64,000 nt of DNA, from contig OZ024740.1 of NCBI GenBank assembly GCA_964016885.1, positions 145,452,001 to 145,516,000 on the forward strand, given 5' to 3'. The position numbers and the translations under genes were made by a program. This document shows, in pieces, positions 11,086 to 62,099 of this stretch; the stretch's first letter is position 1, and each line of letters starts with the position of its first letter. Below the pieces are notes generated by a model. It was not told where the DNA came from and made no database searches. It saw only the letters and a list, made by a program, of their open reading frames with translations. The DNA is from Eledone cirrhosa (Eukaryota).

Positions 11086-12002
11086 CACTTTACATAAGAA
11101 TTCCATTGGATGTTGGCAATACACTTAAAATACGCAAGTCGATTCGCAAAATCCTTAGAACGGTGAACAAAATTTCTTACAATATTCAGTTATAAGCTTT
11201 TACATTCTAGACTCAATGAAGTCAACTTTGCCTTTCTTCCTTCAGGGTCAATAAAATAAAGTACCAGTCAAGTACAAGGATTGATATGCATATCTATAAT
11301 GCTTTCAAGGCATGATCGGAATTATAATAGAATTCTTTATTCATTACCTTTCGTTAAGATATTTTATGAATAAATAGTTTTTCAGCTCAATCATAACAAT
11401 CGTCGATATTCAAAACTATGATACCCTCATAAAGGTGATATTATAATAACATCGTTTTATGAAGCTAAACAAATAAACGCTTAAAATTCTTGAGGAGACG
11501 GATCAGGCGAAAGCGAAAGGAGAAAAGAGGGGTGAGCGGAAAGCTGAAAACTAGCGGAGGTCTGCAAGAGAACAGAGAAACCGACAGATTTCACATACTG
11601 AAGATAACGTTTACAGTCGTTTTGTAAGTTAATACGTGAGAAGATTGCAGTAAAATGAATAGAAAGTGCGTCTGTAACTTGAGAAGTAGCTTCTTAATAG
11701 GAAGAGAATATATAGCTAGAACATTATAGATATGCAGCTACAGTTATAGTGTTAGCACTATAATATACAGTAGTATACCTATAGTATTATAGCTATAATA
11801 TATAAAGATTTGAGTTGATAATATATACAACTCCTGACGTGATTGTTAGTTATGCCTTCCTGACAGTCACACCCACAGAGAAATAAGTCTGATTTGGTGC
11901 AACCAAAGATCTCTCTCTCTCTCTCTCTCTCACTATATATATATATATATATATATATATATATATGTGTGTGTGTGTGTGTGTGTGTGTGTGTGTGTGT
12001 GT

Positions 12003-12070
12003 AAAAGGTAAACAGAAATAACAACACAATCGGTACAGTATATGGAAGGAATATATTAGGTTAACACTTG
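12003..12070 (-). mobile_element. 3' terminus of short element family D, abutting (TG)n/(TA)n
   Basis: aaaaggtaaacagaaataacaacaca..cggtacagtatatggaagg nearly identical to 17981-18050. Confidence 0.8.
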
Positions 12071-12469
12071 AAATATATATATATATTTATTATATACTCT
12101 GAAACTCTGAATTTCAGAAGATCCCATTAAGGGTGAAAGCAGCGGTTCTTTGCTTAAACTTTAATCTGTTCTTATAATAAATATTTGCTCTACGGGTTTA
12201 TATATATTTTATATATATATATAATCCTTATCGAGTCCTCTTCGGATTTTAGTCTTCATATTTATTATTACTATATATATATATATATATATATATATAT
12301 ATATATATATATATATATATATATATATATATATATATATATATATATATATATATATATATATATATATATATATATATATATATATATATATATATAT
12401 ATATATATATATATATATATATTAGTGAAAAAGAACAAAGGAACTATTATGACATTATAACGAGTTTAT

Positions 12470-12516
12470 TGCCGACAGCCGTTTCGTCCGACCATATGGT
12501 GGGACTTTTCAAGGCA
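12470..12516 (-). ncRNA. Type I hammerhead ribozyme with U3-A8 core covariation
   Basis: UGCC-UUGAAAA-GUCC(cACCAUAUGGUc)GGAC-GAAAC-GGCU-GUC-GGCA, then AAUAAA; about 50 bp from a long TA tract. Confidence 0.8.
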
Positions 12517-13284
12517 TATAACATGTGATTGTAGGATCATTATTTACATCAACGTATCACTCAAGGCTAGCAGTTTGAAATTGTGGTATACATCAGCAGC
12601 TCCGCTTGTATAGTTGGGGTCTATATTCTAAGGGGGCTCTTTTATATTAGTTGTCGGGGTCAGGGATTGAAGGTTAGAAATTAGATAATATATAATTTAG
12701 ATAATATATAATTTACGCATTAACAGTAAACTAAAAGACTTGGGATCCCGTAGAAGCACCTTAAAAAATCCCTCAATAAGTGCATAAAGCTTACAGGCTC
12801 CAATAAGCCTAATAGACTAGAGGAAATTAAGAGGCTAATAAAATAAAAAATAAAAATATAAAGTTTCCCTAAAAAATATAAAGTTTCCTATGAAATTCCT
12901 TCGAGAGAAAAAAATTTATTTCTGCTCTGCGTATACGCATAGAGCTTAACTAGCTACCGTCACATATTTGGTAAGTCAGACGTGATCATCGCGATTCACA
13001 TACGACCTACCATACATCTTGCTTATATATATATATATATTTTGTGCGTGTAGGGATATATACTTTATTATTATTCTCTTTTTGGTCGAGAAAATAATTT
13101 GGTCGTTCTGACTGCTGCTAGTTATAGTGGTAGTAGACTGACCTCCCTGCCTTTGCTTCTATCTTTACACACGGCACTTGAAGGAATTGCTCCCACATCA
13201 TTTACTCTCATCTCGGGAACCATTTTGAATAGCGCCAGTTCGTAATTTGAACTCGCGAATTTTATATTCTCCGAGTGAAAAGAT

Positions 13285-13368
13285 CCTTCTGGCGAGAGTT
13301 TTTCTTTGCAATGGATGCCGTAAGGACTGTCCATTTATTTTTGAAACTCGAAACCGATTCGGTAAAGG
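13285..13368 (+). ncRNA. Type I hammerhead ribozyme with A6G variant core and long stem II
   Basis: CCUU-CUGGCGA-GAGUUU...AAACUC-GAAAC-CGAUUCG-GUA-AAGG. Confidence 0.7.
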
Positions 13369-58420: not shown

Positions 58421-60559
58421 TTTTTTTTGTCTTACAGTGCCAAATAGTATAACAGCTATCGCTTAAATAAGAACTCCTCTTTATAGTCGTCTCCCTTGAA
58501 AGAGGGCAGCAATAGCACCGCATCTTGGCACAAATTTGAACTACAATTTGTCTAAGTTAATTCTTTTCTTCATCACTTATGTTATAACTCTGTTACTTTC
58601 ATATTTTTATGCCTCAGTAACCGCTTCTTTTTAGAACATCTCCTTGGTCCTTATGGCAGTGATGATGATGCAGCTACGACTGTCATTGGCTATGACACGT
58701 CCCTGTACAACCTAATCGAGTCTGCGAATGACTAGCGTGTGTCCTATTTCGCCGATTATTTTCAATATCTCTCTATCACATTGTCTCCCACCACTCTTTC
58801 TTTTATCACCCTTTCGGTCATTTTACTCCTATTCAATTTCCTTGCCAACAGCTAACATATTGCCCTCTCTCTCTCTCTCTCTCTCTCTCTCTCTCTCTCT
58901 CTCTCTCTCTCTCTCTCTCTCTCTCTCTCTCTCTCTCTCTCTCGCTCGCTCTCGCTCTCGCTCTCTCTCTCTCTCTCTCTCTCTCTCTCTCTCTTTCTTT
59001 CTTTCTTTCTCTTTCTCTCGGTCTCTCTCGCTTTGGCTCTCTTCCCATTCAGTAGCTTGGAAAAGAATGGAAGAGTGTATTTAATAAATAAAACTTCAAG
59101 AGATCATTTCGAAATTTCAGAAAACTTCAAAAGGAAAGAAAGTATGTGAGCAGTTGTTTTAAGAAAAATGGCTTAAAGTGTTGATGTGGTTAAATCATGG
59201 CCATGTGGGAGACAATTAAAAAAACATTTATCTTTACTGCACTGAAACATTCTGAGAAAAAAAGTACAATAAATTCTATATCAATAAATCATGTTATGTA
59301 GAATCTGTGGTGAAAAGGGCGTTAAGTGTTGTACATTTGACATGTGGATGGCGTAATCTGGATAATTAGGAATGTAAGATAAGACATGATGATATTGTGT
59401 GAAGCGTATATCTTTAAAGAGGTGGTTAATTGTTTTGTATACAAGGACAATAGTACAACTGAGTGTTAAAACAACTGGTAGGTATTTCAGCGGGTAGGAG
59501 AACAGACATTGTTATAGAGAACAAGAAAAAAATACTATTCCCTGCTGACGGTAATGGTATGAAATTCACTTGATTTTATTTCGAATACAAGGTTTCAAAT
59601 ACAAGAATAGCAGCATGATAATTATATATAGCACAGAAATAAGAAACTTGGTAGAAAAGTTAAAAATATCAGGAAGTCGGTGGAAATATTAGCAATGTAT
59701 GTATAAATAAATATACAGTCATGGCCGTAGTTATTCAGTCACGTTGAGAAATTAGGTTACAGTAGCTTTGGATGATGATTGGTCTGAACATTAAGGATTC
59801 GCTTGTCTCTTCATAACGCCGAGCGATAGTAGCGGAAGAGTATGTATTACAATGCAGACAAGAATGTACCTCGGCACACCTCGTTCCTTTATTATAAATC
59901 ACAATTGGTGGACATGAGCGTCTTTGCTTACAGGTATCCAACGATAATGACAAAGGAGTTTCTGTAATTCGATGTAGAACAGATGCTGCTATGAATCGCT
60001 AAAAACAATCGCCAGGATTTGGGTTTACTCACTGATGTTTATATGTGCATATATATATATATATATATATATATATATATATATATATATATATATATAT
60101 ATATATATAGGAGAGAGTATGACCCCAACGGCAGAGCTCAAGCCGTTTCGACGGCTATTTCTGGACTACAGTCCAGAAATACCCGTCGAAACGGCTTGAG
60201 CTCTACCGTCGGCGTCATACTCTCTCCTATTACCCACTTTACTTCCCTAAGTATTGAGTACTCTGGTGCGTTATGGTCCACCTGGTCCATCTAATCAGGA
60301 TTTAAATTAAATCATTTAATTAAATCATTTAATATAAAGTCACATTGAGCTTTAAAATGTTCTTTGCCTTTATATGGTTGTATTATCAACTTATCTAAAC
60401 TCTTACATATATATATATATGTGTGTGTGTATATGTGTATATGTGTGTGTATATATATATGTGTGTGTGTATATATGGATATATATGGATATATGTGTAT
60501 ATGTGTATATATGTATATGTGTATGTATATGTGTGTATGTTTATATATATATATCTATC

Positions 60560-60742
60560 TAGGGCGGGTAAAATTCCCGAGATCCATGGACGAGTTCTCT
60601 CCAGCGGTCTCTGTCCCTCATTATCACTGCCATGTCCTGCGTCTCCAACAGACCAATGTCTGTCCTTGAGGCATCAACATACGTTAACCTTGGTCTTCCT
60701 CTTCCAGTGTGTCCATGTAGGGGCTCCCACGGGAGCACTGAG
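60560..60742 (-). mobile_element. RTE-like LINE 3' end
   Basis: Same family as 55005 and 55511. Confidence 0.85.
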
Positions 60743-60899
60743 TGTATGTATATGAGTGTGTGTGTTTGTGTGTGGGAGTGAGGGCATGCGTGTGTGATTG
60801 TAGGCACCGGACCATTTCAATAGAACTACCAATGAATAGCCATTGTTAGCTTAAGTGAACCTTAAAAATCAGGAGCCACACCACATATAAACATACCAC

Positions 60900-61430
60900 A
60901 TATAAATACAAACACACACGTGCGTATCCCCACATACACACACTCATCCTCCAGACTCCACACGCCCCCTCCCCCACCCTATGTTGACACCGGTTTCCCT
61001 TTTACCTGAACATGGAACCTCGTTCTTCCCCCAACTCTCACATTCACATACACACACACACACACACACACACGTACACCCATACACAAACACCACCTTC
61101 AGCCCTCCCCGCTCGGATCCCTCGCGCCCCTCTCACCTCTCCACCCCTACACGCCTCACACCTTTTCACCACTTCTTTATTTTTATTTTTATTTTTATTT
61201 GTACTTTTTAAAAATTTCCTTTAATCCCTAAAAAAAGTGTTCCCCCCCCCCCTCTTTTTTTAAATGTCTTTCCCCCACACACCCTCAGAACTCTCTTCCT
61301 ACCCACTGTTCTCCTGATGAAGGGCTTATGCCCGAAACGTCGTCCCCCACCCCCCACTCTCAAGCGTGAAACTAATGCTAATATCATTTGTACTGCCTCT
61401 CTGTTTTTTGTTCTCTGTTCATTTTTTGTT
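60900..61430 (+). mobile_element. PLE family C 3' end fragment with hammerhead
   Basis: ctgatgaagggcttatgcccgaaacgtc and flanks homologous to 17520-17940. Confidence 0.85.
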
Positions 61431-62099
61431 TTGACCTGTTTAGCTTGATTTGGTTTTTGGCTTGGGTGGTTAATGCTTTCTTGACAACCTTTTCAGTTTT
61501 GTATGGCTTCTTAACACATTGTTTAGCTCTGGTTTTTAACTATTGAGCACTTTACCAGTATCATTTCTGATTTTTGCGTTTCGCTTCGCTTTTCCTGCCC
61601 GTCGAAAATGCGATTCTCGCTGAATTTTTATTTGTATATATATATATATAACGAAGGAGGTGTGGTAAGGAACCAGATGGACCATAACGCACCAGAGTAC
61701 TCAATACTTAGGGTAGTAGAGTGGGTAATAGGAAAATGTTTAACCCCGCCGGCAGAGCTCAAGCCGTTTCTACGGTCCAGAAATAGCCGTCGAAACGGCT
61801 TGAGCTCTGCCGTCGGAGTTAAACATTTTCCTATATATATATATATATGTGTGTGTGTGTGTGTGTGTGTGTGTGTATGTGTGTGTGTGTTGTAGCGATA
61901 GATTTCTTCGATGCACATAATGTTAAGTTTAGCTATTCATACCTTCAAGTCATCACGTTCAGCATTACACGCCACAACCGAAAGCATACACCGGCAATGG
62001 CTGAAATCGAGCTACTTGCTTGCTGAAAAGATTGCGCCTTTCCAAAGCCGTAATATATAGAGCTACATTCACTCCACTAGATGACATCCCGAAGAACTA

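Follow-up and report, generated by a model that had tools for sequence, protein, structure and literature searches.

Penelope-like element ends and two retrozyme-like families in (TA)n microsatellites of Eledone cirrhosa

Elements at the locus

The genome of Eledone cirrhosa (genome size 3.0 Gb) was studied over a stretch of 64,000 nucleotides on contig OZ024740.1 (positions 145,452,001 to 145,516,000 of the forward strand), which is called the window in what follows. The window contains eleven type I hammerhead ribozyme motifs, each of them close to a microsatellite. Our data strongly favour the reading that these motifs belong to 3' ends of Penelope-like elements (PLEs) and to two tandem families of retrozymes, stacked in TA microsatellites which are likely cut by the GIY-YIG endonucleases of the elements. 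Families are named by the letter F and a window coordinate.

Three families carry coding sequence in the window itself. F44228, a putative Hydra-type PLE, occupies 44191-47522 on the minus strand, with the reverse transcriptase (RT) at 45992-47521 and a frameshifted endonuclease at 45307-45849; its hammerhead (44228-44347) has a long stem II, and a TA/CA tract lies in the 3' untranslated region (UTR). The PLE F26866 covers 20147-27122 on mixed strands and consists of a long copy with RT and GIY-YIG on the minus strand, an upstream pseudo-long terminal repeat (pseudo-LTR) and an inverted truncated copy on the plus strand. Its hammerheads are at 20432, 24569 and 26866, further copies are at 42101-42971 and 53052-54983, and the N-terminal part of its frame holds a long Asn-rich low-complexity insert (23140-23600). 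F17828 is a truncated PLE on the plus strand (15767-17941) with GIY-YIG at about 16389-16736, a C-rich 3' UTR and a damaged hammerhead at 17830-17858; sister ends are present at 41878 and 61313.

The other families are represented by short pieces. F12470 (12423-13023, minus strand) is composed of a 5'-truncated PLE end at 12423-12907 (minus), with the hammerhead at 12471-12515, and an inverted tail of 107 nt at 12917-13023 (plus). F18067 (17982-18155, hammerhead 18066-18101) and the old F36687 (36641-37248, hammerhead 36689-36733) are PLE 3' ends on the minus strand, and F56206 (56186-56356, damaged hammerhead 56205-56257) is one on the plus strand. F34981 is a head-to-head insertion (34370-35078) with a hammerhead at 34978-35036 on the plus strand and an inverted copy near 34861 on the minus strand. 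F19974 (19947-20077, plus; hammerhead 19976-20033) is a remnant with an internal deletion. Two families are retrozyme-like and lie on the plus strand. F13285 is a partial monomer (13041-13438, hammerhead 13285-13368), and F15421 is an array of 1.5 units of 464 bp with an internal TA tract (14951-15705, hammerhead 15421-15465) and an inverted tail of 60 nt at 14951-15010.

The original prediction, an earlier reading of this DNA from its letters, did not contain F55330, a foldback made of the 3' half of a U3-A8 hammerhead and a tail (55263-55450; also at 56018-56103, 60110-60286 and 61651-61831). Foldback insertions of related hammerhead families at 42996-43348 and 27165-27351 were also absent from its list. 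The motif at 43242-43307 has GAAU instead of GAAA, and a complete core with an upstream Hydra-like endonuclease occurs in sampled genome loci (L305). Tail-only remnants, which include a U3-A8 hammerhead family, the family that matches Rfam RF00163, F18067 and a family without assignment, are found at 12002-12071, 12087-12271, 13461-13632, 18217-18290 and 35146-35229. A TA-flanked element at 14225-14888, with a decayed hammerhead-like box at 14766, has three matches in sampled loci. A decayed GIY-YIG C-terminus of another PLE lies at 62022-62340, and no TA-fused end was found there.

Hammerhead motifs and their microsatellites

A type I hammerhead was recognised by its core boxes, CUGANGA (or the U3-A8 variant) and GAAA, an NUH site and stems I-III; the strict descriptor comprises both boxes, the site and the three stems, with U3-A8 permitted. 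Type I motifs had been predicted at eleven coordinates, and this observation is confirmed, as a motif is present at every one of them, with the coordinate about 8 nt or less from the motif end. The strict descriptor is satisfied at five of the eleven sites (12470, 15421, 18067, 44228 and, twice, 34981), which gives six matches in total. The remaining six are damaged in the window copy or atypical. A6 is altered in the window copy of F13285, a family in which 21 of 30 copies have CUGACGA. The F19974 motif has lost an internal segment and that of F56206 has mutated stems, while other copies of both are intact. The hammerhead test is passed by other copies of these three families, and F17828, F26866 and F36687 stay atypical. 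F17828 is without U16.1, and its sister copies have a stem I of just 1-2 bp; F26866 has an intact core and merely two contiguous stem I pairs; the box of F36687 is CCGAUGA, as in 13 of 30 family copies. In F12470 the core is U3-A8 in 29 of 30 copies. Stem III is palindromic (G-U permitted) in nine of the eleven hammerheads, in line with what had been noticed before. Going by the literature, these ribozymes would self-cleave, probably as dimers through the palindromic stem III. PLE hammerheads have been reported to show low activity in vitro (PMC4209133).

It was found that the motifs lie far above chance expectation. When the window was shuffled 100 times with microsatellites held in place, a mean of 0.01 strict matches was obtained against the six observed. 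An unbiased genome sample of 100 evenly spaced 10-kb stretches from 14 contigs (1 Mb in total) contained 56 strict hammerheads, representing 38 independent insertions, and five shuffles of it gave 0, 0, 0, 1 and 0. No hammerhead was present among the 150 of 215 matches listed in an Rfam scan of the window, where microsatellite-driven microRNA matches dominate. The window is ordinary and no special (TA)n island: its six strict matches in 64 kb compare with 56 per Mb in the genome sample, and its TA content of 4.0% is under the sample mean of 5.3%.

Copy number in the genome was estimated from pattern matches on both strands, for which reversed-pattern controls gave 0; each pattern spans the ribozyme's 3' half, and foldbacks containing half a ribozyme account for many of the matches. 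Nine families were counted, with F17828, F26866 and F44228 outside the count. F56206 gave 60,761 matches, F55330 57,391, F15421 31,378, F18067 9,456, F34981 3,634, F19974 1,329, F13285 1,300, F12470 1,206 and F36687 140, and the sum is 166,595 pattern matches. About 20 reference families make up 7.0% of the 1-Mb sample. The elements themselves belong to known kinds and are present here at very high copy number.

A microsatellite lies 37-152 nt 3' of the hammerhead at all eleven sites and a (TA)5+ run 37-213 nt 3' of it, again at all eleven, so the claimed proximity stands. It also withstands comparison with controls. In the 1-Mb sample 32 of the 38 independent hammerheads have (TA)5+ within 300 nt downstream against a background of 0.198 (binomial p about 2e-17), and 18 of 35 have it within 300 nt upstream. 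The 18 genome matches to RF00163, all of one family, have (TA)n 84-270 nt downstream without exception, mostly at two fixed distances. In each family 22-30 of 30 copies have TA joined to the element at set positions 3' of the hammerhead; some F56206 loci that resemble segmental duplicates (both flanks common) were kept in this count. F18067 also adjoins (CA)n in 8 of 30 copies. At least 128 of 372 long TA clusters adjoin one of these families.

On the 5' side a microsatellite is present at the junction in 38 of 66 non-inverted copies (33 of these being TA) against a background of 4.6%, and in F13285 alone TA is found at 15 of 16 such junctions. The internal TA tract of F15421 is informative here. 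Of 100 such tracts in which both anchors are present, 97 are uninterrupted, TA-flanked insertions divide two, and one is rearranged in a different manner. The two insertions, an F55330 foldback (L022) and the end of an RTE-like long interspersed nuclear element (LINE; L040), have entered the tract, and the host sequence resumes beyond each. The split tracts together with the microsatellites at 5' junctions indicate that TA is a pre-existing target. Around the two nested insertions TA totals 88 and 53 units, as compared to 36-126 nt in intact tracts, and the (TA)n tract may lengthen at or after insertion.

LINE 3' ends are fused to (TA)n in the window as well (55004-55240, 55513-55860 and 60558-60744), and in L040 such an end is inserted into a TA tract; from their motifs we take these LINEs to be RTE-like. 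LINE ends in TA tracts suggest that TA targeting is shared by a non-PLE family. In addition, microsatellite tracts occur inside PLE 3' UTRs, over about 2.8 kb in F56206 (L400:940-3730) and at 44650-45130 in the window copy of F44228, with a tract at a similar distance in another F44228 locus (L347). It is possible that these are carried landing pads.

Coding parents, clades and the two retrozyme families

The original prediction offered two readings, that most families are very short truncated ends or that they are an undescribed set of non-autonomous retrozyme-like RNAs. The second of these did not survive. Eight of the eleven families join upstream to PLE coding sequence for RT and/or GIY-YIG, three of them in the window (F17828, F26866 and F44228) and five in genome copies (F12470, F18067, F34981, F36687 and F56206), and these eight are therefore ends of autonomous-type PLEs. 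The first 30 matches per family were inspected, and longer stretches were taken where the spacing hinted at whole elements. In F12470, RT and GIY-YIG are enclosed by two hammerheads on the same strand in three units of 5.3-5.9 kb (L229-L231). F56206 forms a unit of 6.0 kb (L400) with an open frame of 758 aa and a TA/TG-rich 3' UTR of about 2.8 kb. An endonuclease lies about 1.6 kb upstream of F34981 in three loci (L234-L236), two of which also have RT, and 400-540 nt upstream of F18067 in 2 of 30 loci (L117, L119). For F36687 a decayed same-strand endonuclease was found 1.3 kb upstream in one locus (L205/L406), to which the window copy aligns over about 600 nt. F55330, with an endonuclease upstream (L269, L340), is a ninth coding-linked family. 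F56206 and F55330 had seemed non-coding in 3-kb loci and turned out to be autonomous on closer study; annotation of short loci would wrongly call many PLE ends non-autonomous.

F19974 copies share just about 270 nt upstream, and this family may be autonomous or non-autonomous. Candidates for its parent were rejected: a same-strand 2.4-kb pair is a local duplication without coding sequence, an endonuclease beside L156/L407 lies on the other strand and lacks linkage to the family in further copies, and L415 leads into a pyrimidine-rich tract and a short interspersed nuclear element. Same-strand F55330/F56206 pairs in L399 and L401-L405 are likewise separate insertions, with coding links only in L400 and L269.

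Each ingredient of the system is already published (PMC4209133, PMC8557442, PMC7229834). The families had also been called unrelated. This is correct at the DNA level, where pairwise comparison of 13 hammerhead regions gave one weak match, and incorrect at the protein level, where five endonucleases are 33-45% identical to each other. As a whole the earlier interpretation is partly supported: PLE ends in TA microsatellites far above chance, with retrozyme-like units (F13285 and F15421) among them, were borne out.

RT and, at the C-terminus, GIY-YIG are combined in a single frame in L400 (758 aa), in L231 and at 24901-26595 of the window, and the PLE proteins carry YRDD/YVDD and GIY-YIG residues. 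When 8000 candidates were scored, 1199 proved homologous to the 758-aa protein, with lengths of about 700 aa; identity is 39-54% for the top ones, and the best carries GIY-YIG PF01541. Five of seven aligned endonucleases (F12470, F34981, F44228, F55330 and F56206) have a CxCX5C linker and, on either side of E and N, CxxC and CxH, the absence of CCHH being judged by eye, and in the decayed F36687 copy only the C-terminal CxxC is visible. The RT motifs are RWK in F44228 and RWR in F56206 and F12470, DKT in F56206, F44228 and L230, and DKA in L229. A pseudo-LTR partial tandem, an inverted 5'-truncated copy and a one-sided tail are found in L229, L230, L400 and at 20147-27122 of the window.

The Hydra clade is defined by the CxCX5C linker, CxxC/CxH around E and N, RWK and the change of DKG to DKT, and nearly all of its members insert into (TA)n and carry hammerheads (PMC8557442). 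The present elements share with it the C-terminal GIY-YIG next to RT, DKT, RWK/RWR, the linker, (TA)n insertion, a near-3' hammerhead, inverted truncated copies and a one-sided tail, which points to Hydra-type PLEs among the window families. They differ in the length of the units, which is 5.3-6.0 kb here through long 3' UTRs (1.1-3.7 kb) and generally <3 kb in the published members, a general trait and no diagnostic. Tails are 68-107 nt here against 30-40 bp, and U3-A8 cores in two families and microsatellite tracts in the 3' UTR are further differences. Hydra-1_Obim of Octopus bimaculoides is a published member (Craig et al. 2021, PMC8557442), and its hammerhead matches, by eye, no window family. 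An octopus repeat annotation reports 31 recently active Penelope-like families, and the word 'ribozyme' is absent from its accessible text (PMC13282606). F26866 and F18067 have a CX4CxxC linker and further Cys/His in the endonuclease, like Neptune and Nematis (CX2-5CxxC linker with CCHH, PMC8557442), and appear Neptune/Nematis-like by this published description of the linker; F18067 differs in that it also adjoins (CA)n. The F17828 endonuclease is 51-55% identical to that of F18067.

The minimal hammerheads described from pseudo-LTRs of metazoan PLEs (Cervera and de la Pena 2014, PMC4209133) resemble the present ones in many ways: there are many families per genome, mostly as solo motifs of truncated PLEs, with opposite-strand pairs separated by 100-700 bp, one additional base ahead of stem II, a palindromic stem III and U3-A8 covariation. 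Microsatellite targeting is not mentioned in the accessible text of that study, and thousands per genome there compare with about 167,000 matches in nine families here.

F15421 and F13285 are of another kind. Their units (456-538 bp and 476-486 bp) are arranged head-to-tail; out of 17 and 27 independent insertions, 3 and 7 respectively are tandem, a grouping which may be off by one. Each unit has a hammerhead, and in L344 there are six units, each a strict match. Within an array, identity of the F15421 units is 99.4-100%; across arrays it is 95.5-95.8%. GC content is 0.36 in F15421 and 0.35 in F13285, below the limit of 45-50% that applies to retrozymes, the longest ATG frames are 112 and 70 aa, and comparison with PLE proteins gave no match. 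In 66 F15421 and 37 F13285 sampled loci no endonuclease was found upstream without a TA break; endonuclease matches near F15421 copies were discarded as linked sequence because TA runs separate them. Folding z is -6.3 for F15421, to which the TA/TG tract contributes, and -3.5 for F13285. Judged by sequence features, the two families fit non-LTR retrozymes. Those of other animals (Cervera and de la Pena 2020, PMC7229834; Li, Clavereau and Pollet 2026, bioRxiv 10.64898/2026.07.22.740005) are likewise tandem non-coding units with one type I hammerhead each, low GC, strong self-pairing and PLE co-occurrence. Published units measure 150-450 bp; those described here are slightly above this range, which we read as a size extension. 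Strict TA junctions, two ends of PLE type, inverted arms and the internal TA tract of F15421 set the present families apart. No literature that ties retrozymes to microsatellite targets was found in a search with subscription journals, Repbase and preprint supplements outside its reach. Two further tandem hammerhead units in the 1-Mb sample, one of 310 bp (L306:8833-9763, four in a row and an inverted copy) and one of 482 bp (L322:3631-4113), are likely retrozymes too.

Insertion signature and competing explanations

The TA-targeting families have two fixed 3' ends each, 60-113 nt apart. In 150 copies of five families the 5' side was inspected: an inverted copy was present in 71 and absent in 66, and the remaining 13 extend beyond the locus. 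Head-to-head pairs consist of one short and one long arm in 42 of 45 cases (4 of 4 in F13285). At the start sites the element sequence is TAT at 8 of 10 readable ends, and TAC and TGT at the other two. In an in vitro study, both DNA strands were cut and extended by a PLE protein, with two internal start sites that define the tail (Frangieh et al., PMC11167929); short homology such as TAT was not seen there. A literature search on Penelope elements and TA microsatellites gave no paper, and one on twin priming in PLEs gave only papers that look unrelated.

We propose the following course of insertion. The GIY-YIG endonuclease would open both strands of a (TA)n run, and as (TA)n reads the same on either strand, each of the two DNA ends would be able to prime reverse transcription. 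One end would prime at the short start site, 40-95 nt past the hammerhead, and the other at the long start site, 60-113 nt further on. Both complementary DNAs would abort early and be joined head to head. The product would be a short end, often inverted, that contains the hammerhead and has TA to its left and right, and this flanking TA would offer a fresh landing site for the next insertion. Retrozymes would be copied in trans by PLE enzymes from multimeric or circular RNA, a template that could yield near-identical tandem units. Their mobilisation in trans is likely, as they share PLE-type ends.

Several observations weigh against this reading. A microsatellite is missing at 28 of the 66 non-inverted 5' junctions, and F12470 has one in 1 of 9 only; divergence from the reference sequences used may be the cause. 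Three of the 45 head-to-head pairs have equal or near-equal arms, and F18067 has no inverted copy among 30. Pfam scores for RT and GIY-YIG are all under the cut-off, so that protein identity rests on motifs and homologues; a search of solved structures gave irrelevant or sub-threshold matches only. The Hydra call was made from motifs. PLE priming was non-homologous in vitro, and insertion still took place with hammerhead mutants (PMC11167929), which means that mobility may not require the ribozyme. Finally, no helper element was found for F15421 or F13285, and 30 of 31,378 and 30 of 1,300 matches were inspected in addition to other sampled loci, so that a rare coding parent may exist.

This last point leads to the question of whether all eleven families, 13285 and 15421 included, are truncated ends of autonomous PLEs with unsampled coding copies. 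The history of F56206 and F55330, which lost their non-coding appearance outside 3-kb loci, speaks for it. In tandem copies, however, each unit is preceded upstream by another unit, which accounts for the upstream sequence in full, and an endonuclease without an intervening TA run was met in none of the 66 and 37 loci, which makes this explanation unlikely. Similarly unlikely is that F15421 and F13285 are satellites derived from one PLE terminal repeat by local DNA amplification with no RT in trans, a scenario discussed in bioRxiv 10.64898/2026.07.22.740005. The near identity of F15421 units within an array and the lack of a helper PLE with common ends would agree with it, but the two families are dispersed in 31,378 and 1,300 places, most insertions contain fewer than two units, and F13285 resembles autonomous PLEs in its TA junctions and in its short and long arms.

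It could also be argued that the TA runs are tails written by a telomerase-like RT at insertion and not prior targets. The fusion of TA at fixed sites in 22-30 of 30 copies per family is what such tails would look like, and the runs around nested insertions seem to grow. On the other hand TA or CA is also present at variable 5' truncation points (38 of 66), and two insertions split a TA tract that is known from 97 intact copies; we therefore consider written tails very unlikely. Least probable by far is that most families are undescribed non-autonomous ribozyme RNAs, which had been put forward as one of two options. This fits two of the eleven, besides the 310-bp and 482-bp units of the random sample, and fails for the eight that join PLE coding sequence.

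The preferred reading of PLE ends and retrozymes in TA targets thus describes something real and far above chance that is an ordinary state of this genome, and it is explained by TA-targeting PLEs and non-LTR retrozymes. Existing knowledge is extended in three ways: retrozymes bear the insertion signature of PLEs, elements carry TA tracts internally, and the scale is large. So far, arguments on how animal retrozymes move have been based on their co-occurrence and on kinship of sequence. In the present case two retrozyme families have target, two-end structure and inversions in common with autonomous PLEs of the same genome; if the reading is true, their inverted arms and the pair of fixed ends would count as direct evidence, from the genome itself, of insertion by PLE RT and endonuclease. 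The shared signature and the 758-aa open frame in one PLE copy make mobilisation in trans testable in vitro. It seems from the copy numbers that the content of TA microsatellites in the E. cirrhosa genome is shaped by PLEs. It could well be, and we put this forward tentatively, that TA islands are self-feeding: Hydra-type PLEs and trans-moved retrozymes would cut, lengthen and carry TA (F15421, F56206, F44228) and so build a large share of the microsatellites. If true, such elements would leave on the order of 100,000 hammerheads.

The rest of the window contains a number of other features. LINE RT/endonuclease fragments on the minus strand and a Ty3-like polymerase fragment are presumably present at 1-1450 and 7812-8234, as judged from motifs; no Pfam match was obtained for the two frames scanned. 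A frame of 308 aa at 50357-51283, also without a Pfam match, resembles a Helitron protein in its motifs. At 6039-6790 units of 21-23 bp form an inverted array, after which comes a 30-bp tandem array, and arrays of a palindromic unit of about 49 bp, interleaved with (TA)n, are present at 37430-37870 and 38430-38800.

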